Assembly (NCBI GenBank): GCA_035686985.1
Contig: DASRYX010000402.1
Location: 1 to 37,557, forward strand
Length of the DNA: 37,557 nt
Direction: 5' to 3'
Source: Planctomycetaceae bacterium
Lineage (GTDB): Bacteria > Planctomycetota > Planctomycetia > Planctomycetales > Planctomycetaceae
Position 1 is the first letter of the stretch, and each line of letters opens with the position of its first letter. The position numbers and the translations under genes are program-made. The notes under the pieces were generated by a model. It had not been told where the DNA came from and ran no database searches. It worked only from the letters and a program-made list of their open reading frames with translations. This document shows, one piece after another, positions 3,052 to 28,050 of the stretch.

Positions 3052-3076
3052 CTTGTAACAGGCCGCGGTTCAGAAA

Positions 3077-3145
3077 TAGGGTCCGCTGTGCGGACCATGA
3101 TGAACTGTGAACCGTGAATCAAGATGGCCCGCACAGCGGACCCTG
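3077..3145. repeat. REPIN-like inverted repeat doublet, copy 1 (decayed ends)
   Basis: Left arm TAGGGTCCGCTGTGCGGACC (3077-3096), 29-nt spacer, right arm GGCCCGCACAGCGGACCCTG (3126-3145), which is the reverse complement with 2 mismatches. Each arm contains the 7-bp/3-nt-loop mini-hairpin GGTCCGC-TGT-GCGGACC. Lies 26 nt after the stop of the upstream CDS. Confidence 0.85.
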
Positions 3146-3243
3146 CGCGATTGTGCAAAACCATGCCGTGGTCCCTCTCAGCCCCTCGGATTTGTCATTT
3201 TTGCCGCTGAAATCGTCTTTCGGCAAAACATGCAGAAGACGCA

Positions 3244-3271
3244 TTGACATTCGGCAGCCTTTGCAGATAAC
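3244..3271 (+). promoter_or_regulatory. Candidate sigma70-type promoter (TTGACA-N16-GATAAC)
   Basis: TTGACA at 3244-3249 and GATAAC at 3266-3271, in a 517-bp non-coding gap about 300 nt upstream of the TPR gene ATG. Consensus match only; planctomycete promoter rules are poorly known. Confidence 0.3.
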
Positions 3272-3568
3272 ACTCCGCCCACACTCCCGTTCACAAAACA
3301 ATTCGATCTTGCTCGTCCCGCACGACTCGCGTCGCAGCGGAACAACACCCGCGACATCTCCCCGTCGCCGGTCGCGTTTCTCTGTCACCTTGGCGTGAGG
3401 ACGATGGTTGCAGTCTCCCGCAACGCGTGAGCGTTCTCGCTCGCCGCCTTGCTGGTGACTCCAGTCATCGTGCCTTTCGGCTGGTTCTCCAATCCAATCT
3501 TTCATCACGTCTCCAGAAAATCGCACAGGTGCGACGCGATCGCGTCACGCCCTGAGGATCGTCGCGTC

Positions 3569-6593: not shown

Positions 6594-6633
6594 TCCCTTC
6601 GTGTTTCGTTTCCTTGTCCTTAGCACAGTAAGA

Positions 6634-11264: not shown

Positions 11265-12260
11265 ATGGATGCCGTTCGGAAAGCTGCGATTCTGCTGTTG
11301 AGCCTCGACAAGCCGCTGGCGGCCGAGGTGCTCAGTCAACTGCCGCGCGAGCAGGTCGAGAAGATCACGCTCGAAATCGCCAAGGTTGATGACGTCACCA
11401 AGGATCAGCAGCAGAGTGTGCTCGACGAGTTCGACGGGAATTTCAAAGAGCTCGTCCCGATCGAGCGCGGCGGGTTGAACTTTGCCAACGAGTTGCTGGA
11501 GCAGTCGCTCGGTAAAGACAACGCCGGGCAGATTCTCGAAAACGTCAAGCAGTCGATGAACTCGGTTCCGTTCGCCTTCCTGCACAAGGCCGGCGCGGAC
11601 AACCTGCTGACGTTCATCTCGGAAGAGCATCCGCAGACGATCGCGCTCATCATGTCGCACCTGCCAGCATCACTCGCCGCGGAAATGCTGAGCGGTCTGG
11701 CGTCCAACAAGCAGCTCGACGTCATCAAGCGCGTCGCCAACATGGAACAGACCAGCCCGGAGGTGATCGCCGATGTCGAACGCAGCCTGCAGGCCCGCAT
11801 GACGAGCACCTTCAGCCAGTCGATGGAAAAGCGCGGCGGCGTCCCGATGGTGGCCCAGATTCTCAACGTCACCGACCGCATGACGAACAAAGGCATTCTG
11901 GAAAGCCTCGAACAGCAGGACGCCGAACTCGCCGATGAGATTCGCCGCCTGATGTTCGTCTTCGACGACCTGTTGAAACTCGACGACAAGGCGATTCGTG
12001 CTTTGCTCAAGGAAGTCGAAAACAACCAGTGGGCGATCGCGCTCAAAGGCGCGTCGGACGAAATTCGCCAGAAAATCTTCGCGAATCTCTCGCAGCGGGC
12101 GGCGGAAACGCTCAAGGAAGAAATGGAGTTCCTCGGCCCGGTGCGTCTCACCGATGTCGAAGGCATCCAGCAGCAGATCGTGGACATCGTCCGGCGACTG
12201 GAAGATGCGGGTGAAATCGCCGTCGCGGGCGGCGGCGGTGGCGACCAGTTCATCTCCTAG
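11265..12260 (+). CDS. fliG: Flagellar motor switch protein FliG
   Basis: 331 aa. Motifs: AAILLLSL...AAEVL, EEHPQTIALIMSHL, MFVFDDL, and the C-terminal charged helix region (SQRAAETLKEEMEFLGPVRLTDVEGIQQQIV). Confidence 0.95.
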   Translation: MDAVRKAAILLLSLDKPLAAEVLSQLPREQVEKITLEIAKVDDVTKDQQQSVLDEFDGNFKELVPIERGGLNFANELLEQSLGKDNAGQILENVKQSMNSVPFAFLHKAGADNLLTFISEEHPQTIALIMSHLPASLAAEMLSGLASNKQLDVIKRVANMEQTSPEVIADVERSLQARMTSTFSQSMEKRGGVPMVAQILNVTDRMTNKGILESLEQQDAELADEIRRLMFVFDDLLKLDDKAIRALLKEVENNQWAIALKGASDEIRQKIFANLSQRAAETLKEEMEFLGPVRLTDVEGIQQQIVDIVRRLEDAGEIAVAGGGGGDQFIS

Positions 12261-12291: not shown

Positions 12292-12999
12292 ATGTCGCTT
12301 GATTCTCCTCGCCTGCTGAAAGCGCATTCCAACCGGCAACCCGGACCGGCGGCGGCGTTTAATTTCGAGGACCTGCGGGCGCAAGCCCTCGCCCAAGTCA
12401 CCGCGGCGCAACAGACCGCACAGGAGACGATTGAAAGCGCCAGGAAGGAAGCCGAGTTGATTCGACAGAAGGCGCATGCGGAAGCCCGCGAAGCCGGTCG
12501 AAAAGAAGGGCTCAGCAACGCGGCCACTTTGATCGAACAGCAGGCGAAGCAGCTCACCGAGCAGCGCTTTGCCGAACAGATGAAGTCGACATTGCCCGTG
12601 CTGACGAAAGTCGCAGCGGCGTTGCAGCAGGAACGTGATGAATGGCTCGTCCGCTGGGAACAGGCGGCGATCGAGCTGGGAGTCGCCATCGCCGCCAAGC
12701 TGGTGCGGACGAATCTGGTCGCGCGACCGGAACTAGCTACCGGGATGATCTCCGAGGCGCTGAAACTCGCCGCAGGGCAACCGCAACTACGAGTCCATCT
12801 GAATCCCACGGACCTGACGCGGTTCGGCGACAAAGCCCAGCAGATCGTGGAAAGCTTATCCGCCTGCGCGTCGCCGGAACTGATTCCAGACCCGTCGTTG
12901 CCGGTGGGGGATTGTCGTCTGGAAACCCGGCACGGCGAGATTGACGCCCGTCTCGATGCCATGCTGCATCGCATTGCCGAAGAACTGTTAGCTGCCTGA
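12292..12999 (+). CDS. fliH: Flagellar assembly protein FliH (FliH/SctL family)
   Basis: 235 aa. Coiled-coil N-half (AQETIESARKEAELIRQKAHAEAREAGRKEG) and a C-terminal FliH-type domain (VHLNPTDL..., GDCRLETRHGEIDARLDAMLHRIAEEL). Immediately follows fliG. Confidence 0.75.
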   Translation: MSLDSPRLLKAHSNRQPGPAAAFNFEDLRAQALAQVTAAQQTAQETIESARKEAELIRQKAHAEAREAGRKEGLSNAATLIEQQAKQLTEQRFAEQMKSTLPVLTKVAAALQQERDEWLVRWEQAAIELGVAIAAKLVRTNLVARPELATGMISEALKLAAGQPQLRVHLNPTDLTRFGDKAQQIVESLSACASPELIPDPSLPVGDCRLETRHGEIDARLDAMLHRIAEELLAA

Positions 13000-15535: not shown

Positions 15536-15565
15536 TTGACGGCAGCTGGTGGAATCCGTTAGATT
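15536..15565 (+). promoter_or_regulatory. Candidate sigma70-type promoter for the 15613-27228 gene string
   Basis: TTGACG (15536-15541), a 17-nt spacer, then TTAGAT (15559-15564), or an 18-nt spacer and TAGATT (15560-15565). Lies about 45 nt upstream of the ATG at 15613, which has a strong GAGGAGG Shine-Dalgarno. Confidence 0.4.
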
Positions 15566-15612
15566 AAAGAGTGTGGCGGCGGGGGCACGTCGATTACCCG
15601 AGAGGAGGCCGC

Positions 15613-15885
15613 ATGTCGCAGGCGATTGTCGATCCGGAGGATCTCCGCCGATTTGCCGGAATGTTACGCGATTTCAATGGCGATCTGCAGTCCAAGCTGA
15701 CGGTCCTTGCCGGACAGCTCAATGCGCTCAGTCAGACCTGGCGCGATCAGGAACACCAGAAGTTCTCCGAAGAATTCACGCAGCATCTCCGCATGGCGGC
15801 CCGGTTCGTCGAAGCGAATGAAGAGCACATTCCGTATCTCCTGAGAAAAGCGGAACGGATCGAAGAATACCTGCAGCAGCACTGA
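15613..15885 (+). CDS. WXG100/ESAT-6-like small helical-hairpin protein (W-R-D turn variant), 90 aa
   Basis: ATG 15613 follows GAGGAGG. MSQAIVDPEDLRRFAGMLRDFNGDLQSKLTVLAGQLNALSQTWRDQEHQKFSEEF... About 90 aa, two predicted helices, central Trp turn followed by xxxF. No signal peptide. Confidence 0.5.
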   Translation: MSQAIVDPEDLRRFAGMLRDFNGDLQSKLTVLAGQLNALSQTWRDQEHQKFSEEFTQHLRMAARFVEANEEHIPYLLRKAERIEEYLQQH

Positions 15886-15981
15886 TCGATTTGATTCCAA
15901 CGCGTTGTTGATACGTCCAGACCTCTCCCGTTTGATATCCATTGCCGACTGCGCGATTCGCGACGTGGGACATTGTCCGCC

Positions 15982-16524
15982 ATGCCGTCCGCCCGAGTGA
16001 CTTCCATCGACGCCATCGTGGCCTTTCGTGCCGCGGTGATTGCGTTTCTGGATCGTGGACCGGCGGCGCTGGGAAGTTTGCGTCAGGAAACGCATCGCAC
16101 GATGATGTGGCTGGAACAGGAACAGCCGCGCTACTGGCAGGAAGAGCTGCGCAAGGGCTACGATCGCATCGCCTCAGCACGCACAGCTTTGGATGCCTGC
16201 CGGATGCGGACGGTCGCCGGTCATCGCTCGGCGTGCATTGAAGAACAGGTCGCGCTGCGGAAAGCGAAAGAACGCGTGGATTACTGCCAGGAGCAGGCCG
16301 ACATCACCCGCCGGTGGGCACTGAGGGCCCGCGAGGAAGCCGATGAATTTCTCGGCAAGATTGCCCCGTTGGACCGGTCCTTCCAGCAGGACGTGCCCAA
16401 CATGGTTGCCGTGCTCGAACGGATGATCCTGGCGATCGAAGCGTATCAGGGCGTGACGGGTGACCTCGAAGGGGATCTTCCCCAGGAGACGACGACGGAC
16501 GTCGAAGCGGAGGATCCGTCGTGA
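15982..16524 (+). CDS. Hypothetical all-helical (coiled-coil) protein with an acidic C-terminal tail, 180 aa
   Basis: ATG 15982 (ORF-track TTG at 15973). Heptad-like Arg/Glu-rich sequence (YWQEELRKGYDRIASARTALDACR..., RKAKERVDYCQEQADITRRWALRAREEADEF). Stop overlaps the next start (GTGA). Confidence 0.6.
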   Translation: MPSARVTSIDAIVAFRAAVIAFLDRGPAALGSLRQETHRTMMWLEQEQPRYWQEELRKGYDRIASARTALDACRMRTVAGHRSACIEEQVALRKAKERVDYCQEQADITRRWALRAREEADEFLGKIAPLDRSFQQDVPNMVAVLERMILAIEAYQGVTGDLEGDLPQETTTDVEAEDPS

Positions 16525-18305
16525 AGTTTTTGGTGCTGATCCTCACCGCAGGGTTGATCTGTTTCGGCAGCGCGGTTGCGGTCTGCGCTGCGGCCGATAC
16601 GCCGCCTTCGAAGAAACTCGATGTCGGATTAGAGAAGAAAATCAACGACGCGCTGACGAAAGCAAAAGACTCACTGCTGAAGACCGGGGCGACTGGACTG
16701 GTTGACAGCGAGGCCTCCATCGTCGCGTACGCGCTTCATAAAGGCGGGCTACCCGCCACGCATCCCAAAATCGCCGGGGCGATCGACGCCATCACGCAGA
16801 AGATTCAGGCCGGGGCATATGGCACCGGCAACGGACCGCCCCATCACGTCTATGAAGCCGCGTGCGATGCCATGCTGCTGGTGGATATCGACCCCGCAGC
16901 GCACCAGGCGAAGCTGAATGTCCTGCGCGATTACATCACGACACGGCAGCGGTCGAACGGGTCCTGGCATTACCCGGCGACCCCGGCGGCGGACAACGTC
17001 GGCGATACCAGCATCACGCAGTTTGCGCTGCTCGGCTTGTGGGCCGTCCGGCGCGCCGATATTGAAGTGGCGCCGGAAGCCTGGGACAAAGCCGCACGCT
17101 GGCTGATCGATACGCAGCTCAGCGACGGTGGCTTTGCGTATCATCCGCAGGAGAAAGAAAAGCCCGAAAACTACAACTCGACAATGTCAATGACGGCGGC
17201 CGGGGCTTCCTCACTGCTGATCATTCAACGCATGCTGTACGGCGACCGGATCATTTCCACGCCGGAAGCGGTGCCGTCCAGCCGCAAGCGGTTCGGCGTG
17301 CTGGAAGCCTTCCCGCAGGAAAACAGCGCGGGGCCGAAAGCGGCAGCTCAACCGGCGAAGAAGATCAGCAATGAAACGCTGGACAAGAGCATTCGCAAAG
17401 CCCACACCTGGCTCAACGGCCACTTCGACCCACGACCGAAGTTCCATTTCTACACGTATGAACTTTACGGTTGCGAACGCGTCGGATCGTTGCTGGAAAC
17501 CGACCGATTCGGCAGTCACCACTGGTACGAAGACGGGGCTCAATCACTCAGTGAGAATCAACGTCCCGACGGCAGCTGGTATGCCACCTCGTCGCCGCGG
17601 GCAATGACGGCGTTCGGCATTTTGTTTCTCACACGCGCGACGCAATCCATCGTCACGCCACGGGTGAAGGTGCGCATGACCGGGGCGGGGCTCCTCGCCG
17701 GGGGACGCGGTTTGCCGGATGATTTATCCAAGGTCGCCATTCAGGACGGGTCCGTCACGCAGCGGAAGAAACTCGGACCGCTTGATGAACTGCTCGCCGA
17801 TCTGGAAAAATCCGCTGTCACCGACGTTCCGGTCAACCCGCAATCGGTGATTGCCACGCTGCAGTTCGATAAGCCGGACGAACTGGTGGGGAAGCTCGAC
17901 CAACTACCCGCGATGTTGAAACATCCCAAACCCGAAGTCCGCCAGGTCGCCGCCTGGGCGCTCGGCCGTTCGGGCGAGCTGCGCATGATCCCGTTGCTGG
18001 TTACGGCGCTCGCTGACACCGATCTGAACGTCGCTGCGGATGCCAGCCTCGCCCTGTGTGTGCTGACACGACAACCGCAGGGCATTGCCAAAGGCGATTC
18101 GGCGACCGATCGCATTTCTCCTGAACCGCCGGAAGTGAACGAGGTGGACATCGACGGCGAAAAGCTTCCCCCCGAGAAGATCGAAGCCGCAAAAGCAGCG
18201 CTCGCGGAATGGCGACGGAGCAGTCAGCAGGCGTGGACACGCTGGTATCTCGCTCATCGTCCGTATGATGAACGCGACGATCGTCAACAGATTCGCAACA
18301 AATAA
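16521..18305 (+). CDS. Secreted prenyltransferase/squalene-cyclase-like (alpha/alpha-toroid repeat) protein with C-terminal HEAT repeats
   Basis: Signal peptide MKFLVLILTAGLICFGSAVAVCAAA. QxxxGxW/QxxDGGF repeats (QRSNGSWHY, QLSDGGFAY, QRPDGSWY). HEAT/PBS-lyase-like C-terminus (HPKPEVRQVAAWALGRSGELRMIPLLVTALADTDLNVAADASLAL). Confidence 0.6.
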   Translation: MKFLVLILTAGLICFGSAVAVCAAADTPPSKKLDVGLEKKINDALTKAKDSLLKTGATGLVDSEASIVAYALHKGGLPATHPKIAGAIDAITQKIQAGAYGTGNGPPHHVYEAACDAMLLVDIDPAAHQAKLNVLRDYITTRQRSNGSWHYPATPAADNVGDTSITQFALLGLWAVRRADIEVAPEAWDKAARWLIDTQLSDGGFAYHPQEKEKPENYNSTMSMTAAGASSLLIIQRMLYGDRIISTPEAVPSSRKRFGVLEAFPQENSAGPKAAAQPAKKISNETLDKSIRKAHTWLNGHFDPRPKFHFYTYELYGCERVGSLLETDRFGSHHWYEDGAQSLSENQRPDGSWYATSSPRAMTAFGILFLTRATQSIVTPRVKVRMTGAGLLAGGRGLPDDLSKVAIQDGSVTQRKKLGPLDELLADLEKSAVTDVPVNPQSVIATLQFDKPDELVGKLDQLPAMLKHPKPEVRQVAAWALGRSGELRMIPLLVTALADTDLNVAADASLALCVLTRQPQGIAKGDSATDRISPEPPEVNEVDIDGEKLPPEKIEAAKAALAEWRRSSQQAWTRWYLAHRPYDERDDRQQIRNK

Positions 18306-18322
18306 CGGACGCCGCACCGCTG

Positions 18323-19228
18323 ATGCCTGCCCCTTCCGATGCTCCGATCCCCGTGCTGCGTGTGACGCAGTACGACCGCGCCGCGGCCGGGGTGATCGCG
18401 GCGTTCGTGGTGCTGGCCGTGATCTGCGTCGCGATTGTGTCGTTGTGGATGTCAACCCGCCCGGTTCCGGTGGCGCTCGCAGTTCCGGTGGAAATCGTCG
18501 ATTTGCCGGGCGGCTTCCTCGACGGCTCGATCGATGAGACACTGCGCGTGGATGCCGCGGGACCGGAAGTGTTTAATGCCTCTCCGGCGGATGAGGTCTC
18601 GACCACGCAGCTCGAAATCGCGGAGTCGCTGGAATCCTCCACATCGATGTCCGACATTGCCGGCGCAGCGGCTCCGACCCAACAGCAGTTCGAAACTGGC
18701 GGCACGAAGAACATCGGACAGAAGGGGAGTGCCAAGGGAACCGGGCCACGACCCTACGGCTTCGGAGGCCCCGGAGCCGGTCTCCCGCGTGAACAGCGCT
18801 GGTTCGTGCGGTTCGACAGCCAGGTCAGTCTGGACGAATACGCTAAGCAACTTGACTTCTTCAAGATCGAACTGGGAGCGCTTCTCCCCGACGGACGGCT
18901 GGCGATCTTGTCGCAGACCGCGCAACCGAAACCGGCACTGCGTTACATCGCCCGCGGTTCGGACGAGCAGCGGCTCTTCATGACGTGGCAGGGCGGCGAG
19001 CGGCGATTCGCGGACGTGCAGCTCTTTGCGAAAGCCGGCGTAACGGTGCCGGGCGATGCGCCGTTGTTTCAGTTCTATCCGAAGGACATCGAGGCCCAAC
19101 TGGCGACGCTGGAGCGCGATTACCGCAACCGCACCGCGCGGGAAATCAAGCGGACCTATTTTGTCGTCATCCCACAAGGCGCGGGATTTGGTTTCCAGGT
19201 GGTCCGTCAGACACTACATCAGCAGTAA
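18323..19228 (+). CDS. Membrane-anchored hypothetical protein (N-terminal TM, low-complexity linker, unknown C-terminal domain)
   Basis: TM helix AAAGVIAAFVVLAVICVAIVSLWM. Ala/Pro/Gly/Ser-rich linker. C-terminal roughly 150 aa (RWFVRFDSQVSLDEYAKQLDFFKIELGALLPDGRL...) has no motif I recognise. Starts 17 nt after the previous stop. Confidence 0.6.
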   Translation: MPAPSDAPIPVLRVTQYDRAAAGVIAAFVVLAVICVAIVSLWMSTRPVPVALAVPVEIVDLPGGFLDGSIDETLRVDAAGPEVFNASPADEVSTTQLEIAESLESSTSMSDIAGAAAPTQQQFETGGTKNIGQKGSAKGTGPRPYGFGGPGAGLPREQRWFVRFDSQVSLDEYAKQLDFFKIELGALLPDGRLAILSQTAQPKPALRYIARGSDEQRLFMTWQGGERRFADVQLFAKAGVTVPGDAPLFQFYPKDIEAQLATLERDYRNRTAREIKRTYFVVIPQGAGFGFQVVRQTLHQQ

Positions 19229-19269
19229 CATCCGCTCATCGCCATTCCATTTCGTAAGTCACCGATTCC

Positions 19270-22200
19270 ATGCCGAGTTTGCAGGTCCTGTTTGCCGACG
19301 GTCGCCGGATCACGAAAACGCTGGAGCGGACATCGCCGCTGACAGTCGGAGCCCAGTCGTTTAACGATGTCTGCATCGCTGAGCCGGGCGTTCCTGCGCT
19401 GGCGTGTCGCATTGGCTGGAACAAGACTGGGTTCGAGCTCACCGCGGCAACGGCGAATGGAATCGAAGTCAACGGGACCGTGGTCGCCCATGCGGTTCTG
19501 CGGAATGACGATCTCATCCGCATCGGCACCGCCGACGCCATCTTTCTCGATGAAACCGCGCCGCCGCCACCGCCGGTGAAAAAGCGTGTGGAGGAACGGA
19601 AGCCGGTCGTCATCGAAGAGTCGGAGCCTTCGTTGTTCGAGGGCCCTGTGCATGTCGAGTCCTCGTCCGCAGAAATCACCGACGAATCCGAAGATCTGCC
19701 GGTGCTCACACGTCGCCGGGCCGACGAGCGCGAAGCCGAAGCACCGCCGCCAGTGGTTGCCGCCCCACGCGATGTCACCGGCGCGGTTCACCGTCCCGGT
19801 GAAGAGCAGGTCTTCAAGTCGCCGTTGATTCTGATTCTGACCACAGTGACCGGCGTCCTGCTGCTCGTGGCGGCGACACTGTATTTCCTGATGGGCCGTG
19901 AATCGCAAACTCGGCTCTTTTCCACCGGAGAGAAAGAACTCGCGTCGGGCCGATACACGCAGGCGATAGAAGCCTTCGAACAGTTCCGTAAACTGTATCC
20001 GCGCAGCCAGCAGCGGCATGCCGCTGAGGTGGGCATCGGCAAAGCCCTCGTGCAGCGTGAATTGTCCGCCGCACCGCCGCGATGGGAAAATGCGTGGAAA
20101 CAGCTGCAAGAACTCGTTAGCGATCAGCGCAAGGCCGCCGACTATGGCGACCTGCGGCCGATTGTACGTGACCTCGCCGAACAGATTGCGGTTGGGTCGG
20201 CGAGTGCTGCCGAAACCGCGGCCGAGGAAAAGCTGCTCACCGTTTCCGCTGAAGCCACGCAATTGATGGAACGATCGACGCCGCCGAACTCACCGGAAGC
20301 GCCGGCGCTCAAGCAGATCCGTGACGCGAGTGATCGAGCGCGAGGGGCGATTGTTCGCCGTCGTGCGCTCGAGGCGGCACTCACGAAGATGACCACATCG
20401 CTGGAAGCGGGCGACGCGATCTCGGCTTTGGCCACGCGGCAGGCCTTGCTCCTGCAGTTTCCTCAGTTCGCGAAAGAGAAGCGATTTGAACCGCTGGTGA
20501 AGCAGGCGCGGGAGATCGCGCTGAAGGCGGTGTCCATCCGCGAAGTGGACCGCGATGCCACCGCCAGCCCGAAGGTGATGATCGCGCCGTCAGTTCTGCC
20601 GGTGGTGCATGCGCGGTCGCGCACCGATGAGTCGTCGCTGGGGCAGGTGGCCTATGTGCTCGCCGCCGACGTCTGCTACGCCGTGGATACCGTGACTGGC
20701 GACGTGGTCTGGCGACGCGCTATCGGACGGAATCCACCCTTCTTTCCGCTGGCCTTGCGGGATCCGAAACCGTGCGTGCTGCTGTATGACGGTCATCGTC
20801 AGCTACTCTTGCTGTGCGATGCGAAGCAGGGCGATGTGATGTGGCAGCAGCCCCTCGAGCACGCCCCGGTCGGTCCGCCGGTCCTGCATGGTGGCCAGGC
20901 TTATCTCGCCACGCGCGGTCGGCGGTTGCTGCGGTTCGAGGTCGCGTCGGGACGGATCTCCACACAGCTGGAATTCCCGCAGGAACTCGCCGCGGCGCCG
21001 GCGTTATCGCCCGACGGCGAATCGCTTCTGATCAGCGGCCAGCGGGGGTTGGTGTATTTCGTGTCAACGCATCCGCTCGCTTGTCAGGCGGTGACATTCA
21101 CCGATCACGCCGAGGGCAGCGTCCGTGTTCCGTTGCTTCCGATGGGGCGCTTGTTCCTGTTCTGTGAGCACGATCAGGCCGACAGTTCGCGGTTGCGGGT
21201 TTACCGCCAGACCGATGTGACAAAGCCGCTCGTGGAAGAAAGTTTTGTGCGGATCCGCGGCGGTGTCTACGATCCCCCGGCGTTACGGGGAGCCCAATTA
21301 GTGGTGCCGACACAAGGCGAACGGCTCGCCGCATTCACCGTGGATGACGAACCGAATCGCACCGCGCTGTCACCCGTCGGCGAGTACCGCGTGCAGGATG
21401 CCTACGGCGGCCCGCTGCATGTGATGCTCGGGCCCGACCAGCAGTTCTGGATGAGCAGCACGGCGTTCCGGCGATTTCAGCTCGGCACCGATAGCATCAA
21501 GATGGATTCGCGCGTTGCCGCCGTCGGCATTACGGCACAGCCGCTGCAAGCCATTGCCGAGACGTTCTTCGTCGGCCGCCGGACGACGACTTCCACCGCG
21601 GTCACGTTTTCCAATCTTGATCGCGAGAAGCTGAGCGGCTCATGGCGAACCGTCGTCGGCGGACGTCCGCTCGCGACATCCGTTGCCGACAACGGGAATC
21701 TGATTCTGGTCAACGATGCCGGCGCGGTATTCCGCTTGTCGCCGTCGCGGCTGCAGCAACCGGGTGTCGAGACGCGGGCCTTCGAAGAAATCGAGTTGCC
21801 CGCGGGTGTCGATCAACCCTTGATGGCCGAGCGGCAACACGACGGCCGCATTGCCGTCATTGCGAATGGATCGTCACCAACATGGTGGATCGTGGAACCG
21901 AATGGCTCACTCGGCAAGCCACAGAAACTCCCGGAGAGTCTGTCGGTTCCACCGGTCCTGCTGGACATCGGCTGGGTGATGGCCCGCCCGGGGCGATTGA
22001 GTGTCGTGCCGACGGCGGGAACGAAAGTCGATGACTGGCGGGCTCCCGCCGACGGCGACGGTTCCGCCACATGGACCGCTTTGCTGCGGTTGTCGGGCAC
22101 GGAACTGCTGCTCGGTGATGCCTCCGGCCGCTGGCGACGACTGCAGGTGCGCACGGGCGATATTCCGCATCTCGCGGAAGTGCAATCGGTCGAACTATCG

Positions 22201-22665
22201 CCGCTACGAAGTCCGCCGCGCGTCGCTGGGGATGTCATCGTCCAACTCGACGAAGAAGGACGCCTGCACCGGCTGGATGCGCAGACGCTCGATGAGAATG
22301 CCCAACGCAGCCTCTCTGCCGACGCGGCCGGCTTTGATCTAGTGCAGAGCGATCTCGTGCTGGCGTGGTCCCCCGGCGCCCTGCACGGCATCCCGATCAA
22401 AGAGTTTCAGGCCGGCGGATGGTCGCTGCCGCTGGACGGGTTGACGGTCGTCGGTCGTCCGTTGGTCCGCGGGGATCGCGTGCGCGTCGCGACTTCCAAC
22501 GGCATCGTGGTCACGCTCGACTGGCGGACGGGGAAAGAACTGCACCGGGAAACGTTGCCGCAGGCGCTGTCCGGCTTGATGACCACGATTGATCAGCACG
22601 ACTATGCGATTGCCCTGGATGGAGCGGTCTTTCGTCTCGCCGATTCGCCGGAGGGTTCGCCATGA
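19270..22665 (+). CDS. FHA-like domain - TM - TPR-like - PQQ/BamB-like beta-propeller protein, 1131 aa
   Basis: N-terminal FHA-like fold (LTVGAQSFNDVCIAEPGV...ANGIEVNGTVVAHAVLRNDDLIRIGTADAIF). Pro/Glu-rich linker. TM LILILTTVTGVLLLVAATLYFLM. TPR-like (GRYTQAIEAFEQFRKLYP). Propeller blades (YAVDTVTGDVVWRRAIG, LLCDAKQGDVMWQQPL). Confidence 0.7.
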   Translation: MPSLQVLFADGRRITKTLERTSPLTVGAQSFNDVCIAEPGVPALACRIGWNKTGFELTAATANGIEVNGTVVAHAVLRNDDLIRIGTADAIFLDETAPPPPPVKKRVEERKPVVIEESEPSLFEGPVHVESSSAEITDESEDLPVLTRRRADEREAEAPPPVVAAPRDVTGAVHRPGEEQVFKSPLILILTTVTGVLLLVAATLYFLMGRESQTRLFSTGEKELASGRYTQAIEAFEQFRKLYPRSQQRHAAEVGIGKALVQRELSAAPPRWENAWKQLQELVSDQRKAADYGDLRPIVRDLAEQIAVGSASAAETAAEEKLLTVSAEATQLMERSTPPNSPEAPALKQIRDASDRARGAIVRRRALEAALTKMTTSLEAGDAISALATRQALLLQFPQFAKEKRFEPLVKQAREIALKAVSIREVDRDATASPKVMIAPSVLPVVHARSRTDESSLGQVAYVLAADVCYAVDTVTGDVVWRRAIGRNPPFFPLALRDPKPCVLLYDGHRQLLLLCDAKQGDVMWQQPLEHAPVGPPVLHGGQAYLATRGRRLLRFEVASGRISTQLEFPQELAAAPALSPDGESLLISGQRGLVYFVSTHPLACQAVTFTDHAEGSVRVPLLPMGRLFLFCEHDQADSSRLRVYRQTDVTKPLVEESFVRIRGGVYDPPALRGAQLVVPTQGERLAAFTVDDEPNRTALSPVGEYRVQDAYGGPLHVMLGPDQQFWMSSTAFRRFQLGTDSIKMDSRVAAVGITAQPLQAIAETFFVGRRTTTSTAVTFSNLDREKLSGSWRTVVGGRPLATSVADNGNLILVNDAGAVFRLSPSRLQQPGVETRAFEEIELPAGVDQPLMAERQHDGRIAVIANGSSPTWWIVEPNGSLGKPQKLPESLSVPPVLLDIGWVMARPGRLSVVPTAGTKVDDWRAPADGDGSATWTALLRLSGTELLLGDASGRWRRLQVRTGDIPHLAEVQSVELSPLRSPPRVAGDVIVQLDEEGRLHRLDAQTLDENAQRSLSADAAGFDLVQSDLVLAWSPGALHGIPIKEFQAGGWSLPLDGLTVVGRPLVRGDRVRVATSNGIVVTLDWRTGKELHRETLPQALSGLMTTIDQHDYAIALDGAVFRLADSPEGSP

Positions 22666-25097
22666 ACTTCGCTGTAGTTTGGCGCGTCAGTCTTCGGTTT
22701 TCCCTAACCGCGATCGCTTTCTGTTTCATTCCTCCTCCGAGCGCTTTCGGTCAGGCCACCCCCAATACAACGGCGGAGGAAGAAACGCCGCTGCCGAAAC
22801 TGATTGACATGCCATTGCCGACGGCGGAGTCGCTGCTGCGGGAACGCCCGCGCGACTGGGTGGTGCTGCTCAATCAGGATGTGCTGGTCGTGGAACCGCT
22901 CTTCCCGCGACCGGATACGCTCAAGCTCCGTCGCGAGCAGTACGACAAAATCGTCAAATCCAAGCCGAGCGAAATCGGCCCCGAAAACCGTACTCGAAAA
23001 ATGTACGAGTACGAGCGGATCAGCGTGACCCTGCTGGACGGGGGCGTCGAGCCGGAATACCTCATCGAAACCAAGCACATCGAAAAAGTCATCTACTTCG
23101 AGGATCTGATTCTGCAGCGAGTGACCAAGCTGCTCGACGAAAAGAATCCCGCCCTCGCTTACGATCTGATCACGATGGTCGACCGGCGACAGCACGACTG
23201 GCCGAACCTCGATCTGCATTATCAGCGCTGCCTTTTCGTGCAGGCGGAACAGCATCAGCAGGCCGGGCGGTATGAAAACGGGCTGGTCGTGCTCGAGCAA
23301 CTGCAGCCACTGGCCCCCGAGTATCCCAACCTCTCGGTTCTACTGGGGCGGACGGTGGAACCGTTAATCGAGACCGCCTTCAACGCCGTCGACGACCGCC
23401 GGGCGCGGCACTTCCTCGCACGACTGATCAAGCTGCAGCCGCAGCATAGCGTCGCCGTGAAATGGCGTGACAAACTGATCGCGCGGGCGACACAGGAACT
23501 GAGCACCGCGCGGAGTGAATCGCAGGCCGGTCATCACGGCGAAGCGGTCAGTCATATCGATCTCGCTGCGCGGGCCTGGCCGGATCTCGCGGGATTGAAG
23601 GATGCCCACAAGCAGTTCGTTGAACGCCACCAGCGCCTGCGCGTCGGCATCTGGCAGCCTGCCGACAATCCCGCCGATCCGTATCCCGGCCGACATGCCG
23701 AACGGCATCACGATCTCGGCACCATTCCGCTGTTCGAGCCGGAACGTGTGGTCGATGGCGTGGTCCGCTATCGTTCGGCCTACTTCGAAACGTGGGAGCC
23801 GCGTGATCTTGGCCGGGAATGGGAATTCTGGTTGCGTCCGCGGCGGGCGGAATGGGAATGCCGTCCCGCAGTCACGACCGGGTTGATTGTGGACGCTTTG
23901 CAACGCCGCTGGGATCCGATGTCGCCCGAGTATGATGACCGCTGGGCGGGGCATGTCGCCGCGGTTTCGGCACCGTCGCCCCAGCAGTTGCGGATGAAGC
24001 TCGAGCGGATTCCACTGCGTCTGGAAGCGTGGTTACGGTCGCCGATTCGACTGGATGAAGCGACCCGGTCGTGGAACACCGATCTCGACCCCGCAGTCTG
24101 GGATAACCCCGCGCAGCAGCGGTTCCGTCGTGTGGAACACACAGATCAGAAGAGTACGTTCGTCCGGTCACGACCTGAGCCGCCTGAGCTGAAGGCGCGG
24201 CACCTGACGGAGATCGTCGAGCAGGCGCTGCCGAACTGGGATCGCGCATTGCAGGCGTTGCTGCGTGGTGAAATCGATATGGTTCCCGCCGTCGAATTTC
24301 GTGATGTCCGCGGGCTGCAGAGCGACTCGCGCTTCTTCACCCTGCAGGCCGCATTGCCGCGGACGCATATCGTGATGTTTCATCCGGAATCGTTGCTGAT
24401 GCGGTCGGCCCCCTTACGCCGGGCGCTGCTGCAGGCCCTGCCGCGGGAAGTTCTTCTCGCGGAGACGGTCCTGGAAGGAGCCGATCGGTCTCTTGGGCGA
24501 TTAAGCACCGGACCGTTTGCATCGACGACCTACGGTTATTCAAAAGATCTGCCGCAGCCGGTGTATGACGTGGTGACGGCGGCGTCGCTGGTCGCCACCG
24601 CAAAGAAAGAGCACGGCGGCACGTTGCCCACCCTGCGGATTGTCGCCCCATCCGAAACGGCGATTCAACGAGCCTTGCCGCGGATGCTGGAGGCCTGGCA
24701 ACGCATCGGCTTGACGGTCGAAGTAGTGAAAGAACCCGGAACGCAATGGGACATGGTTTATCGCTCCCTGCGGGTTGTCGAGCCGTTCGCCGATTTATGG
24801 CCGTTGTTCTCGCCCTCGGGAAATGTCGATCATGCCGCGATTGCACCGTTTCCTCACCCCGTTCGCGAAGAGATGCTGGAACTGGAACGCGCCGTGGACT
24901 GGACAACCGCGATGCGCACGCTGCAGCGTCTGCAGCAGGAATTCCTGACGGAAGCCCGCTATCTCCCGTTGTGGGAAGTCGACGAGTTCCAGGTCTTCCG
25001 CCGCCGGGTCGCGGGATTGAATCCCCGGCCGATGCATCCATATTTCGACTGCGAACGCTGGACGGTGCAATCGTGGTTTCCGATGGAGACCCCGTGA
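22662..25097 (+). CDS. Exported TPR-like / family-5 solute-binding-protein-like protein, 811 aa (tentative)
   Basis: ATGA start/stop overlap with the upstream gene. N-terminal hydrophobic signal/anchor (LRFSLTAIAFCFIPPPSAFGQ). The C-terminal approximately 480 aa resembles SBP_bac_5 by eye (LRVGIWQPADNPADP..., FETWEPRDLGREWEFWLRP, LRRALLQALPREVLLAETVLEG). Confidence 0.45.
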   Translation: MNFAVVWRVSLRFSLTAIAFCFIPPPSAFGQATPNTTAEEETPLPKLIDMPLPTAESLLRERPRDWVVLLNQDVLVVEPLFPRPDTLKLRREQYDKIVKSKPSEIGPENRTRKMYEYERISVTLLDGGVEPEYLIETKHIEKVIYFEDLILQRVTKLLDEKNPALAYDLITMVDRRQHDWPNLDLHYQRCLFVQAEQHQQAGRYENGLVVLEQLQPLAPEYPNLSVLLGRTVEPLIETAFNAVDDRRARHFLARLIKLQPQHSVAVKWRDKLIARATQELSTARSESQAGHHGEAVSHIDLAARAWPDLAGLKDAHKQFVERHQRLRVGIWQPADNPADPYPGRHAERHHDLGTIPLFEPERVVDGVVRYRSAYFETWEPRDLGREWEFWLRPRRAEWECRPAVTTGLIVDALQRRWDPMSPEYDDRWAGHVAAVSAPSPQQLRMKLERIPLRLEAWLRSPIRLDEATRSWNTDLDPAVWDNPAQQRFRRVEHTDQKSTFVRSRPEPPELKARHLTEIVEQALPNWDRALQALLRGEIDMVPAVEFRDVRGLQSDSRFFTLQAALPRTHIVMFHPESLLMRSAPLRRALLQALPREVLLAETVLEGADRSLGRLSTGPFASTTYGYSKDLPQPVYDVVTAASLVATAKKEHGGTLPTLRIVAPSETAIQRALPRMLEAWQRIGLTVEVVKEPGTQWDMVYRSLRVVEPFADLWPLFSPSGNVDHAAIAPFPHPVREEMLELERAVDWTTAMRTLQRLQQEFLTEARYLPLWEVDEFQVFRRRVAGLNPRPMHPYFDCERWTVQSWFPMETP

Positions 25098-26578
25098 TGA
25101 GAATCAACGGAGTTCGTCTGCTGCCAGCGTTAGTCATATGGATCGCAATCGCGTCGTGTTCATCCGCCGACGATGAGCCGTTTCTCACGCCGATCGAGTT
25201 CACACCGTATGCGGTGGCGATCCGCGTCGATTTGCCTGGCGACGATGCGCAGGGAGTGATCGACACCGCAAAGTTCAACACGGAACTTCAGACCGCGGTG
25301 GCACGATTCGCGGGACAGCGTTGGGATATCGATCAGACCATCGGCGCGAATCATCGGTGGGCGCGCGCTTCGGCGTGGCGCTCACTGACGAAGGAAAGCT
25401 TGCCAATTGAACTCGACGCGGTGCAGCGCGAGTTCGTGTACCTGATCCGCATGCAGTGGCAGACGGATTCGCTCCGCGCAGAAGTGCGCTTGTGGGAACC
25501 ACTGCTGAAATCGCTCAGCCCCCTGAGAACCGTAACAGCGCGGGATCCGCGCGCACTGCCGGAATTGATCGCTGTCGCGGTATGGGATCTGTTCCGTCCG
25601 CGCGGTCACTGGCAGAAGATCGATGACGGACAAGCCCGGCTCACCGTCCAGGCGGGCGGACTCGGGCTCGAGGCGGGATTACCGCCGCTGGTTCAGCCCG
25701 GCGAAATCTTCGCCCCGTGGATTGTCATGCGCAAACGGGATCAGTCGGTGGAGCGAATCGTTCCGCAGCCGTGGACGTACTTCATTGCCGAGACGCTCAC
25801 GGAGGGCCGCGGAACGGCGCGGATTGTCAGCGGGATTCGGAATCCGCTGGGACTCAAGCCGCGGGGGCGTGTCGAATTTCTCGCCGTCGCAGCCCGGAGT
25901 TCGTGGCCGGAAACAGAGTTCACGTTCCGCCGCCAATCGTCGCCGCCGGAAGTCCTCGCGGCGCATGAAGTCCAGTGGCATCGCGACGAGTTCCCGCTCG
26001 ATGAAGAGCATCCGCCCGAACTGCAGCGGCAACTCACCGACCGGTTCGGCCGCGTCACCTTGAAGCGCGACGCCGAGTCGCGGCTCCAATGGTTGAGCAT
26101 CAGCAGCGGCAGTCAGCTGCTGGCGCGTCTGCCGGTGGTCCCCGGTGAAGAATCTCACCGCGAGGTGATGTTGCCGGACGACAGCCTGCGGCTGCAGGTC
26201 GAAGGCCAGTTGCAGCTGGTTCAAAGCGATCTGCTGTCGTTCGTCGCGACCCGGACAGCATTGATGGCCATCGCGCGTGCATCCGCCAAGAAGGCCGATT
26301 GGGCGACTGTGGATAGTCGGCTGAAACATCTCGATGCCTTACCGACGCCGCAGAGTTTTCTCGATCGCGTGACGGCGATCCGCGTCACCGCCGTCAATCG
26401 AGCCCGCGAGCGCCGGGACCGCACTTCGGAACAGCGCATTCTCCGCATGACCGACGACACGGCGGAGCTCGTCAAACGCTATCTCACCGACGAAAAGATC
26501 GTGCTGCTCAAAGAGGAACTGGCAGAACTGCGCAAAGCGGATCGTGATGAACCGGAAGCGGGGAAACCGAAATTGTAA
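25097..26578 (+). CDS. Lipoprotein-like exported hypothetical protein, 493 aa
   Basis: The ATG at 25097 shares its A with the upstream TGA (TGATG). MRINGVRLLPALVIWIAIASCSSADD has a lipobox-like IASC. The ORF-track extension back to 24746 overlaps the previous gene and is discounted. C-terminus is coiled-coil/charged. Confidence 0.55.
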   Translation: MRINGVRLLPALVIWIAIASCSSADDEPFLTPIEFTPYAVAIRVDLPGDDAQGVIDTAKFNTELQTAVARFAGQRWDIDQTIGANHRWARASAWRSLTKESLPIELDAVQREFVYLIRMQWQTDSLRAEVRLWEPLLKSLSPLRTVTARDPRALPELIAVAVWDLFRPRGHWQKIDDGQARLTVQAGGLGLEAGLPPLVQPGEIFAPWIVMRKRDQSVERIVPQPWTYFIAETLTEGRGTARIVSGIRNPLGLKPRGRVEFLAVAARSSWPETEFTFRRQSSPPEVLAAHEVQWHRDEFPLDEEHPPELQRQLTDRFGRVTLKRDAESRLQWLSISSGSQLLARLPVVPGEESHREVMLPDDSLRLQVEGQLQLVQSDLLSFVATRTALMAIARASAKKADWATVDSRLKHLDALPTPQSFLDRVTAIRVTAVNRARERRDRTSEQRILRMTDDTAELVKRYLTDEKIVLLKEELAELRKADRDEPEAGKPKL

Positions 26579-26583
26579 ACGCC

Positions 26584-27228
26584 GTGGACAGACTAACGTT
26601 GATGATGCGCCGCGGTGTCACGGCGCTGTTGCTGATCGGGTTCTTTGCGTCGGTTTTGCCGGCGGGAAAATTCAATCGTCAACTCAGCGTCGGTGATGCC
26701 GCCCCCGCATGGGAAGGCTTGCGCGGCGTCGACGGCCAGCTCTACAGTCTCGCAGCTTGGAAAGACGTCCCGGCGGTTGTAGTCGTGTTCTTTGCGAACC
26801 GTTGCCCTGTCGCCGAAGCCTACGAACAACGGCTGCTGCAACTCACGGCGGACTTCCGTGACCGGGGCGTGCGCGTGATCGCCGTCTCGGTCAGTCATCA
26901 CGCCAGTGATCGCTTCGAAAAGATGCAGCAGCGCGCTCATGAACGCCGCTGGACGGTGCCCTACGTGCAGGATCTGACGCAGGACATCGCCAGAAAGTAC
27001 GGCGCGACGACTACCTCGCAGGTCTTCCTGTTGAACGCCGAACGCAAAATTGCCTACATGGGGGCAATCGATGACCAGTGGAAGGATGCAGCGAAGGTCG
27101 AAACGCCTTACCTGCGCGACGCGCTGACCGCCGTTCTGGCCGGTAAGCCCGTGGACATTGCTGAGACCCGCCCGCTCGGCTGCGAGATTGAATATCTCGA
27201 TGCGAAAAAAGCCCGCGCGGACGAGTGA
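26584..27228 (+). CDS. Thioredoxin-fold (AhpC/TSA-redoxin family) protein with an N-terminal anchor and a single-Cys motif
   Basis: GTG 26584, or more likely ATG 26602/26605. TM/signal VTALLLIGFFASVL. VVVFFANRCPVAEAYEQRLL...GVRVIAVSVS...VPYVQDLTQDIARKYGATTTSQVFLLNAERKIAYMGAIDD matches the thioredoxin-family subgroup with an N-x-C-P-x-x motif. Confidence 0.75.
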   Translation: MDRLTLMMRRGVTALLLIGFFASVLPAGKFNRQLSVGDAAPAWEGLRGVDGQLYSLAAWKDVPAVVVVFFANRCPVAEAYEQRLLQLTADFRDRGVRVIAVSVSHHASDRFEKMQQRAHERRWTVPYVQDLTQDIARKYGATTTSQVFLLNAERKIAYMGAIDDQWKDAAKVETPYLRDALTAVLAGKPVDIAETRPLGCEIEYLDAKKARADE

Positions 27229-28050
27229 TCAGACCCGCAGTCCCGCCGCTTGCATCAACCGATCGGTGGCCGTGTACGCTTCCCGCACCCAGGCTTCGAT
27301 CTGACTCGGTTCGGGCGAATACTCCAGTTCGATCGAGATCGCACCGTCGATCTGCAGCACGGCAATCTCGTGGAGATATGGCGCGAAATTGACGACCCCG
27401 CGACCAGGCGGCAGGTCCCCGTGAACTTTGCCGTCGCAATCGGAAATATGGACGTGAATCGCGCGGCCCTTCAATCGCCGCAAGTCCTCCGGAGCGACGT
27501 TGGCCAGACAGAGGTGGGAAACATCGATGTTCGCCGCGACCGCGGGGTGCGCCACGTCATCCAGGAAACGCACCATGTTGTCGACGTTATTGAGCAGCGA
27601 CAGCGCAAACGGTTCAAGCTCGAGCGCGATCTGCAGCCCGAGTTCCGCGGCATAGTCGCCGAGACGACGGCAGCTTTCCACCGCCAGTCGCCACTGATGT
27701 GCCGGCGGAATTACTTCGCGATTCCAGATGTACTCGCCGAGCACCAGCAGCAGATTTCGCCCGCCGAATTCGTACACCATGTCGAGGTACTGCGCACAGC
27801 GGTCGATATGGAACCGCTGCACGCTGGGATTGAAGTCGATCAGTCCCGTGGCGACGCAGCAGACCGAGACGATTGGCAGTTGCAGCCGCTCGCATTCCCG
27901 GCGGATCAGCTGCCGTTCCTGAACCGAGATCTCAAGCGGGTCGGCGAAGATATCGACGGTATCGAAACCGAGGTCCTTCGTCTTCGCCAGGCCCCACGCG
28001 GTTTCCCGACCGGCTTGCGCCCACGCGGAATTGATCAATCCCAGCTGCAT
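27229..28050 (-). CDS. Sugar phosphate isomerase/epimerase (xylose-isomerase-like TIM barrel)
   Basis: 273 aa. MQLGLINSAWAQ...AKTKDLGFDTVDIFADP...LALELEP...HVHISDCDG are typical AP-endonuclease-2/xylose-isomerase-like barrel motifs. Confidence 0.8.
   Translation of the reverse strand: MQLGLINSAWAQAGRETAWGLAKTKDLGFDTVDIFADPLEISVQERQLIRRECERLQLPIVSVCCVATGLIDFNPSVQRFHIDRCAQYLDMVYEFGGRNLLLVLGEYIWNREVIPPAHQWRLAVESCRRLGDYAAELGLQIALELEPFALSLLNNVDNMVRFLDDVAHPAVAANIDVSHLCLANVAPEDLRRLKGRAIHVHISDCDGKVHGDLPPGRGVVNFAPYLHEIAVLQIDGAISIELEYSPEPSQIEAWVREAYTATDRLMQAAGLRV

Follow-up and report, generated by a model that had tools for sequence, protein, structure and literature searches.

A candidate motor-coupled envelope gene cluster of Planctomycetaceae, adjoined in its relatives by ExbB-ExbD-ExbD genes

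Proton-driven 5:2 motors (TolQR, ExbBD, and AglRQS) power only a few known envelope processes, and according to a 2025 survey, further motor-coupled systems reportedly await discovery. Here, we describe a cluster of eight genes (g1 to g8) in a 37,557-nucleotide (nt) stretch of DNA from a Planctomycetaceae bacterium (assembly GCA_035686985.1, contig DASRYX010000402.1, positions 1 to 37,557), which we refer to as the window. In related genomes, genes of the g4-to-g7 type were found to be joined to an ExbB-ExbD-ExbD motor trio that the window lacks. We consider it probable, although well short of certain, that the locus is a composite operon in which a motor-less envelope module (g3 to g7) stands together with an orphaned pair resembling part of a type VII secretion system (T7SS; g1 and g2) and a redox add-on (g8). 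The cluster appears to work like the Ton/Tol/Agl motor-coupled class, yet it fits no named member of that class. In line with a first-pass annotation made from the sequence, whose interpretation is thereby supported in part, it is a conserved, tightly packed, and envelope-directed cluster, and we found neither a curated family nor a published paper describing it. Its composition, together with the C-terminal domain of g4, appears to be new; the broad class and the affinities of both modules were already recognizable. We regard the cluster as a specific and testable candidate for a new motor-coupled machine of the envelope, in a phylum whose envelope biology is unusual.

[quoted passage not shown] Bacteria of the Planctomycetes-Verrucomicrobia-Chlamydiae (PVC) superphylum encode vWA-type, motor-linked force transducers beside tolQ-tolR-tolR (PMC12204202), and in the Agl-Glt system of Myxococcus (AglR/AglQ/AglS with the TonB-like proteins GltG and GltJ), GltJ carries cytoplasmic ZnR and GYF domains (PMC11135422). 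As for the T7SS, planctomycetes were noted in 2012 to possess solo WXG domains with a distinct YueA-like ATPase and mobile T7SS (PMC3482391, Table 1, footnote 6). The elements of the locus that are compared with these systems below are as follows (lengths in amino acids [aa]).

15536..15565, + strand: promoter-like hexamer pair (sigma70-like TTGACG-N17-TTAGAT), read in the sequence 5' of g1
15613..15885, + strand: g1, WXG100-family protein of 90 aa (planctomycetal "W-R-D" subfamily), without signal peptide
15982..16524, + strand: g2, 180 aa with an acidic tail, called all-helical in the first-pass annotation, the usual partner of a WXG100 gene
16521..18305, + strand: g3, exported, 594 aa, with an alpha/alpha-toroid-like region and HEAT repeats
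18323..19228, + strand: g4, anchored in the membrane in N-in orientation, with a disordered linker followed by a C-terminal domain of 145 aa
19229..19269, + strand: g4-g5 junction of 41 nt, the site of ExbB-ExbD-ExbD (ca. 1.9 kb) in relatives
19270..22665, + strand: g5, 1131-aa bitopic protein with a degenerate FHA-like domain, transmembrane (TM) helix, TPR, and propeller
22662..25097, + strand: g6, exported, 811 aa, with an SBP_bac_5 (family 5 solute-binding) domain
25097..26578, + strand: g7, 493-aa lipoprotein with TolB-N/FlgT/LpoB-like alpha/beta domains
26584..27228, + strand: g8, anchored or exported thioredoxin-fold protein (AhpC-TSA/Redoxin family)

Conserved core and motor genes in relatives

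A total of 59 loci, one genome per species, were drawn from Planctomycetaceae and unclassified Planctomycetota; open reading frames (ORFs) were called in each and searched with iteratively built profiles of every protein. The counts were corrected by hand for two loci (fragmented g5; over-extended g6 ORF), and the denominators called informative comprise the loci with enough flanking DNA to judge. Homologues of g5 were found in Planctomycetaceae and in unclassified Planctomycetota metagenome-assembled genomes, Schlesneria included; contig look-ups by exact sequence retrieved nothing for either the g5 of the window or the Schlesneria homologue. An ExbB-ExbD-ExbD trio lies directly 5' of g5 in 33/42 informative loci, as in L003, L004, and L005 (MotA_ExbB, ExbD, and ExbD), and stands, divergently oriented, beside a g5 relative of 31% identity. 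Downstream, among informative loci, g6 comes after g5 in 37 of 46 and g7 comes after g6 in 33 of 41; upstream, g4 directly precedes ExbB in 21 of 36, and g3 lies 5' of g4 in 10 of 35. L005, whose g5 is 50% identical to that of the window, reads WXG100, g2, g3, g4, ExbB, ExbD, ExbD, g5, g6, g7, g8, which is the window order plus three genes between g4 and g5. The clustering is far above chance, and gene order is kept in independent genomes with a g5 only 27 to 50% identical to that of the window. From the locus counts, the conserved unit is therefore (g3)-g4-ExbB-ExbD-ExbD-g5-g6-g7.

These comparisons alter several statements of the first-pass annotation. That the cluster lacks an energizer or the core of any named system holds for the window, but most relatives carry ExbB-ExbD-ExbD between g4 and g5. 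The full eight-gene order, proposed there as one to be sought across relatives, is confined to close relatives, an outcome that the annotation had itself named as counting against its proposal and that applies here in part; a core of six to eight genes that includes the motor extends far more widely. Nor does g8 belong to the conserved set. It follows g7 in only 4/35 informative loci and is therefore a lineage-specific addition.

The motor proteins of the relatives belong to the TolQ/ExbB and TolR/ExbD superfamilies and fall far below all equivalog cut-offs (TolQ, TolR, ExbB, and ExbD), with the TolQ-like protein at 64.5 bits (cut-off, 221) and the TolR-like proteins at 30 to 37 bits (cut-off, 127). 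Both ExbD paralogues have the transmembrane Asp and ExbB has the G-T and T-T motifs; by these residues, the proteins look functional. The second paralogue (ExbD2) ends at or overlaps the start of g5 in many loci.

Several observations concern variants of this arrangement. The second ExbD of L005 (9424-10062) bears an N-terminal cytoplasmic CxxC...CxxC zinc ribbon before its TM helix, which is unusual for ExbD/TolR, and a faint zinc-ribbon Pfam match is on record for the L001 homologue. In six Schlesneria loci (L017, L018, L024, L030, L034, and L054), ExbB-ExbD-ExbD-g5 occurs with no g4, g6, or g7 nearby. This is a paralogous form, and some genomes may hold several versions of the g5-motor pair. 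Finally, an ordinary DNA translocase gene, ftsK, lies ca. 2.6 kb 3' of g7 in L043 (13959-16283) and L044 (11985-14378). For the L043 protein, the presence of 4TM, alpha, and gamma domains was verified, and we rejected these FtsK-like matches as T7SS ATPases. Their position near the cluster is probably coincidental, yet it is relevant to a division-related interpretation of the system.

The envelope proteins and their likeness to described systems

The predicted topology of the first-pass annotation was upheld: g1 and g2 would be cytoplasmic, g5 bitopic with its FHA-like side in the cytoplasm, and g3, g4, g6, g7, and g8 exported or anchored. Two unusual single-pass partners stand out in this set, namely, g4, whose C-terminal domain is without a match among solved folds, and g5, in which FHA-like, TPR, and propeller parts are combined.

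The best conserved protein of the set is g4. It has no Pfam family, and its own family comprises 608 clusters, every one of them unnamed or "hypothetical." An AlphaFold2 model built from a 31-sequence alignment contained a TM helix (residues 16 to 45), a disordered stretch (57 to 156), and an alpha/beta C-terminal domain (157 to 300; predicted local distance difference test score [pLDDT], ca. 88). A Foldseek search of the model against the PDB, whose sensitivity the disordered linker may have cut, gave no match at an E value of <0.1, and searches of PDB sequences with the single sequence and the family profile gave chance-level matches only. Conserved segments flank the TM helix on both sides (PVLRVTxYD toward the cytoplasm and VPVELxELPGGxxDGSxDETLRVD toward the periplasm). 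In its predicted layout of N-in anchor, long disordered linker, and globular C-terminal domain, g4 resembles TonB and TolA, and it is a candidate force transducer.

In g5, a TM helix (ca. residues 185 to 208) is predicted to separate a cytoplasmic FHA-like part from a periplasmic TPR and propeller. The propeller is of the BamB type (PQQ_2, 51.8 bits; cut-off, 27.6), while residues 216 to 278 match the YbgF/CpoB TPR model TIGR02795 at only 26.4 bits (cut-off, 90.1) and the BamD TPR match is also weak. At its N terminus, the window protein matches Yop-YscD_cpl only, and weakly (18.5 bits versus a cut-off of 33.2), while PF00498 (FHA) is on record for most g5 homologues; PF16697 is also found among them. 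The canonical phosphothreonine-binding residues of FHA domains are G-R, S-x-x-H, and N-G. The g5 domain has C-R-I-G in place of the canonical S-R-x-H, keeps only N68-G69, and, throughout the window clade, has no Arg next to the conserved Gly27 (Ala follows it in the window). Hence it probably does not bind phosphothreonine, as with YscD-type domains. Beside the TM helix, the family conserves the motifs RPGE(Q/E), SP, and GRE.

Of the exported partners, g3 has a signal peptide at its N terminus, as read from the sequence, and a HEAT_2 match of 32 bits (cut-off, 27.7); matches to the squalene-cyclase/prenyltransferase toroid were weak and under threshold. The solute-binding domain of g6 (SBP_bac_5, PF00496; 45.3 bits versus a cut-off of 32.4) occupies residues 511 to 696 and covers profile positions 144 to 330 of 368, and the ca. 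500 residues before it have no assignment. The thioredoxin fold of g8 was recovered by Pfam (AhpC-TSA/Redoxin, 64.1 and 56.1 bits); one Cys occupies the usual place in the active site (RCPVAE), there is no CxxC, and a second Cys lies in a C-terminal GCEIEY. Nearly all domain calls of the first-pass annotation were reproduced in this way (WXG100 in g1, HEAT in g3, the g5 propeller, the g6 solute-binding domain, and the thioredoxin fold of g8), but the part of g6 that had been called TPR-like has no TPR support in Pfam.

For g7, neither a Pfam family nor an OmpA-family match was found, and a single-sequence search of the PDB stayed at chance level. A lipobox (IAS-C) is read from the sequence. 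The AlphaFold2 model (mean pLDDT, 88.4) consists of alpha/beta domains, then beta-sandwiches, and a C-terminal helical bundle. With this model, Foldseek matched 8z5n_0 of the flagellar LPHT ring (E value, 1e-7) and TolB of A. baumannii (3e-6), followed by LpoB, GNA1162, and CsgG (ca. 1e-3). Global TM-scores are low (ca. 0.2 for TolB), and the likeness is therefore one at the domain level.

Taken as a parts list (motor, anchored transducer, TPR, propeller, and TolB-N/LpoB-like lipoprotein), the system most resembles Tol-Pal. In both, there is a TolQ-like and TolR-like proton motor, here in the relatives; single-pass inner-membrane proteins (g4 and g5) extend into the periplasm; a TPR with weak YbgF/CpoB similarity occurs with a beta-propeller (g5); and a lipoprotein with TolB-N-like domains (g7) is encoded with the rest in one operon. 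The differences are nonetheless considerable. The relatives have two ExbD/TolR paralogues where Tol-Pal has one, their motor scores far under the TolQ and TolR equivalog cut-offs, and the motor genes are absent from the window. The cluster is without a TolA domain, an OmpA-like Pal domain, and the SHLS motif; the g5 propeller is of the BamB/PQQ type and is fused to the anchor; and an FHA-like domain, an SBP5-like protein, and a toroid/HEAT protein are extra. No single cluster protein has the TolB architecture; its TolB-N-like part is found in g7 and its propeller in g5. Because the parts are Tol-Pal-like and the canonical Tol-Pal system is reduced in Planctomycetes, a role of g3 to g7 in envelope maintenance or constriction is our preferred guess, one made by analogy and with low confidence. 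A stronger version, to which we give little credence, is that g4-ExbB-ExbD-ExbD-g5-g6-g7 is a planctomycetal replacement for Tol-Pal. It would be proton-driven, would connect peptidoglycan and a lipoprotein of the outer membrane to the inner membrane under cytoplasmic control by the FHA-like domain, and would serve outer-membrane maintenance or constriction in these FtsZ-less bacteria, the WXG100/partner pair having been captured as a cytoplasmic ligand or cargo in this sub-lineage. The cluster bears on the division and envelope biology of planctomycetes, which are poorly understood. A literature search linking crateriform structures or Planctopirus with Ton/Tol genes found nothing relevant.

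The likeness to Agl-Glt lies in the motor, which has one TolQ-like and two TolR-like proteins, and in bitopic partners that have cytoplasmic regulatory domains and extend to periplasmic and outer-membrane TPR, lipoprotein, and scaffold partners; the cytoplasmic zinc ribbon on ExbD2 of the relatives is a further point in common. However, none of the cluster proteins showed homology to a Glt protein, the cytoplasmic side carries an FHA-like domain rather than ZnR/GYF, and the cluster has no outer-membrane barrels; we came across no report of gliding in these planctomycetes, although no search aimed at one was made. With the vWA force transducers (PMC12204202), g4 shares the concept of a TM helix joined through a disordered linker to a globular C-terminal domain other than that of TonB, encoded beside a tolQ-tolR-tolR trio with a TPR gene, and both occur in the same superphylum. 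In this case, the C-terminal domain of g4 is no vWA domain and has no counterpart among solved folds, g4 is without an SHLS/His motif, and the partner genes (g5 to g7) differ.

With ExbB-ExbD-TonB, the relatives' motor shares a superfamily and g4 shares the TonB layout, whereas the TonB_C domain, a His in the TM helix, and a nearby TonB-dependent receptor are all missing. This comparison bears on another possibility, which is that the motor, acting via g4 or g5, energizes the capture or import of an oligopeptide or glycan bound by g6. Such TonB-like uptake would account for the solute-binding domain of g6, which exceeds its Pfam cut-off, and would suit a motor of the ExbB/ExbD superfamily and the TonB-like topology of g4. 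It is nevertheless unlikely in our view. Searches with Pfam and NCBIfam found no TolA or TonB domain and no TonB-dependent receptor in the cluster or its flanks, and there is no outer-membrane barrel in or beside the cluster, which argues against TonB-type import. Nor is there an ABC permease or ATPase for the solute-binding protein, g4 is without the TonB C-terminal domain, and g6, at 811 aa, includes ca. 500 unassigned N-terminal residues.

The WXG100 pair

The first-pass annotation had the cluster headed by its WXG100-like gene, a description that does not hold for the family at large: g1 and g2 occur with the envelope cluster in only 5/33 informative genome loci and elsewhere stand beside an FtsK/SpoIIIE ATPase gene. 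The assignment of g1 itself is sound. At 90 aa (the family has ca. 100 residues), it scores 38.9 bits against Pfam WXG100 (PF06013; gathering score, 27.3), although it remains under the NCBIfam TIGR03930 cut-off (30.4 versus 44.85), and its PDB sequence matches include EsxB of B. anthracis (E value, 3e-7) and H. pylori HP0062 (1e-6). The central W-x-G of the family is replaced by W-R-D, within a TWRDQE that is invariant in 51 homologues. The C-terminal PYLLRKAERIEEYLQQ is nearly invariant in the same homologues; this tail, of the pattern P[YF]L[LM]RKAxR[IL][ED]EY[LM]QQ[RK], could be an ATPase-recognition signal. Protein identity to relatives is 94 to 97%, with third-codon identity of only 54 to 61%. 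As the third-codon positions are near saturation, the conservation of g1 reflects strong purifying selection, and recent horizontal transfer was rejected as its cause.

For g2, no match was found in Pfam, NCBIfam, or PDB sequences (the last searched with the single sequence and the family profile, with chance-level matches). Its family numbers 1670 representative clusters at an E value of <=1e-3 and is unnamed and without a Pfam model. A C-terminal Imm33-like domain was present in 8 of the 10 longest relatives scanned (E value, <=1e-5). Neighborhoods of g2 were collected in a metagenome scan with an 11-sequence g2 alignment, which yielded 80 loci (L065 to L144). A g1-type WXG100 gene lies directly 5' of g2 in 46 of the 62 loci that had room for one, and an FtsK/SpoIIIE gene lies directly 3' in 44/69, its FtsK_SpoIIIE-domain product being a large coiled-coil/TM protein of about 1000 aa or more. 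By contrast with this usual neighbor, g3 follows g2 in only 3/69 (L066 to L068, in which g1-g2-g3-g4 are kept together; in L066, this block stands alone, without g5 to g7). By its neighborhood, g2 looks like an unnamed conserved component of a planctomycetal T7SS-like module. As a by-product of this work, its family emerges as a widespread one, without a name, that accompanies WXG100 and FtsK-type ATPases in the planctomycetes.

The likeness of the pair to the T7SS consists in g1, a WXG100-family protein like EsxB and HP0062, and in the FtsK/SpoIIIE ATPase gene that follows g1-g2 in most related loci. It ends there: the motif of g1 is W-R-D and not W-x-G, g2 is unlike any T7SS component so far described, an unrelated envelope cluster is joined to the pair, and there is no FtsK-like ORF in the 37.5-kb window. 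Because the usual FtsK/SpoIIIE neighbor is absent from the window, g1-g2 is best described, on gene content, as an ATPase-less copy of the known T7SS-like module, joined to g3-g4 in one sub-lineage.

One might instead suppose that the eight proteins form a new diderm export route for g1, which would be aided by g2, recognized at the FHA-like domain of g5, and passed via g3 to g7. The T7SS ATPases of Firmicutes carry degenerate FHA domains, a parallel that favors this idea, as do the true WXG100 membership of g1 and the very strong purifying selection on it, the overlap of the g2 stop with the g3 start in the window and L005, and the co-occurrence of g1-g2-g3-g4 in L066 to L068. We consider such a route highly improbable. 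The narrow distribution of g1-g2 (5/33 genome loci with the cluster; g3 after g2 in 3/69) argues against WXG100 export by the whole set, the usual FtsK/SpoIIIE neighbor (44/69) is absent from the window, there is no channel-forming protein in the cluster, and the g3-to-g7 core is widespread without a WXG100 gene.

Proposed mechanism and the missing motor

Our functional statements on the cluster rest on synteny and predicted structure. In the composite-operon interpretation that we prefer, g3 to g7 would be the nonmotor parts of an envelope-spanning system found so far only in Planctomycetaceae and unclassified Planctomycetota, with an ancestral order of (g3)-g4-ExbB-ExbD1-ExbD2-g5-g6-g7. In the relatives, an ExbB pentamer and an ExbD1/ExbD2 heterodimer would form a 5:2 proton-driven inner-membrane motor of the TolQR/ExbBD/AglRQS type. 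Proton flow would be converted into force or a conformational change in g4 and/or g5, which would span the periplasm via g3 and g6, the exported scaffold or binding proteins, and make contact with the lipoprotein g7. Control from the cytoplasm might be exerted by the FHA-like domain of g5 and by the zinc ribbon on ExbD2 of the relatives, in the manner of the ZnR and GYF domains of GltJ. The pair g1-g2 would be the orphaned substrate and partner of a "solo WXG100 plus YueA/EssC-like FtsK ATPase" module that became attached 5' of g3-g4 in one sub-lineage, and g8 would be a lineage-specific redox add-on. In the window lineage, the three motor genes would have been excised between g4 and g5, the remaining proteins using a motor in trans.

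The whole 37.5-kb window is devoid of ExbB and ExbD matches, and operon linkage of the nonmotor proteins to ExbB and ExbD genes is accordingly a feature of the relatives (33/42). The trio is likewise absent from L006 to L009 (g5, 70 to 76% identical), from L010, and from the metagenome contig L067, and its absence is therefore not an assembly artefact. The trio-less junction is clean, measuring about 10 to 120 nt in the window and L006 to L010 (41 nt in the window). On a neighbor-joining tree of g5, a rough one without bootstrap and only indicative, the window clade is sister to the motor-bearing L005, and the motor-less L010 groups with the motor-bearing L003. Motor-less loci are polyphyletic on this tree, so the trio seems to have left the cluster more than once. 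A cluster that seems engine-less in a genome scan may thus have lost its engine from the operon, with relatives revealing it.

Constraint on g4 to g7 appears unrelaxed after the loss. Motor-less pairs are ca. 72 to 82% identical in g5 and 82 to 94% in g4, motor-bearing pairs are ca. 79 to 80% and 84 to 93% identical, and the conservation rank (g4 > g5 = g6 > g7) is the same in both. Since the constraint is unchanged, we infer that the motor is most likely supplied in trans in the motor-less lineages, by an ExbB-ExbD-ExbD set located at another genomic site. L007 to L009 do hold a separate, distantly related ExbB-ExbD-ExbD set ca. 3 kb 3' of g8 (about 20377-22304 in L007, about 19603-21665 in L008, and 20277-23363 in L009); no g8 was found in L008, where the set lies 3' of g7, and in L009, the set has an ExbB of 314 aa and is followed by a 350-aa protein without assignment. 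The window carries other genes at this place.

Several findings weigh against the motor-coupled composite that we favor. The tie of the motor to g3 to g7 is drawn from gene adjacency, and repeated loss of the motor could equally mean that g4 to g7 work without one. The TM helix of g4 is without the His/SHLS motif by which TonB and TolA dock on their motors, and g5 likewise has no His in its TM helix and no SHLS/His docking motif. Pfam and NCBIfam searches of the cluster found no OmpA-like or other peptidoglycan-binding domain, no TonB C-terminal domain, and no outer-membrane barrel. The g3-g4 and ExbB-ExbD-ExbD-g5-g6-g7 blocks are unlinked in some genomes (L066 and L003, the latter with ExbB-ExbD-ExbD-g5-g6-g7 and without g3-g4), which makes the locus modular. 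Finally, the g2/g3 start-stop overlap is kept in two clades (the window and L005), so that g1-g2 may be functionally tied to g3-g4 rather than merely placed beside them.

Some of the same findings would be expected if g3 to g7 formed a passive periplasmic scaffold (for example, in envelope biogenesis or peptidoglycan regulation) for which adjacency to the motor genes meant co-regulation only. The repeated motor loss without relaxed constraint on g4 to g7, the prevalence of scaffold folds (TPR, HEAT, propeller, and LpoB/TolB-N-like), and the want of an SHLS/His docking motif all fit such a scaffold. We nevertheless find it doubtful, given that ExbD2 ends at or overlaps the start of g5 in many loci and that the trio adjoins g5 in 33/42 loci over deep divergence, the 31%-identical relative included, a pattern typical of the subunits of one machine.

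Turning to the layout of the locus, the eight same-strand ORFs of the first-pass annotation, with their overlaps and spacings, were all recovered. A GTGA overlap joins the g2 stop to the g3 start, 17 nt separate g3 from g4, an ATGA overlap joins the g5 stop to the g6 start, g6 and g7 overlap by 1 nt (TGATG), and g7 and g8 are 5 nt apart. The 493-aa start of g7 is backed by homologue alignment and the lipobox (IASC), and GAGAGGAGG is located 6 nt 5' of the g1 ATG. The sigma70-like promoter fared less well: the hexamers are present in the sequence, but at one occurrence in 12 kb they are no more frequent than in shuffles (2.4 +/- 1.6), and TTGACG-N17-TTAGAT was dropped as promoter evidence. The gene 3' of g8 (27229-28050) is on the opposite strand and convergent.

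An Rfam scan of the window returned no RNA family, and a repeat search gave short, chance-level matches only. An anti-phage defense system was considered and rejected, as PADLOC gave one marginal HEAT-repeat match and no component match. The flanks are those of a planctomycete chromosome. The 5' side carries genes for a PQQ propeller and a TPR protein, for a sigma-54 activator, and for FliF/FliG/FliH, together with a divergently oriented ABC-F gene; on the 3' side are housekeeping genes and a sulfatase. The start of the flagellar cluster upstream of g1 to g8 comprises the sigma-54-dependent activator (6601-8133), FliF (9589-11184), FliG (11265-12260), and FliH (12292-12999). Farther upstream (73-6100), a 992-aa PQQ_2 propeller protein stands beside an 883-aa multi-TPR protein; the former (73-3051) was rejected as a g5 paralogue, its propeller-repeat similarity being only weak. 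A Joint Genome Institute (JGI) metagenome contig (Ga0247823_10041411 [L069], 3560 nt) is 100% identical in DNA to the window across g1, which places the same organism, or one nearly identical to it, in that metagenome.

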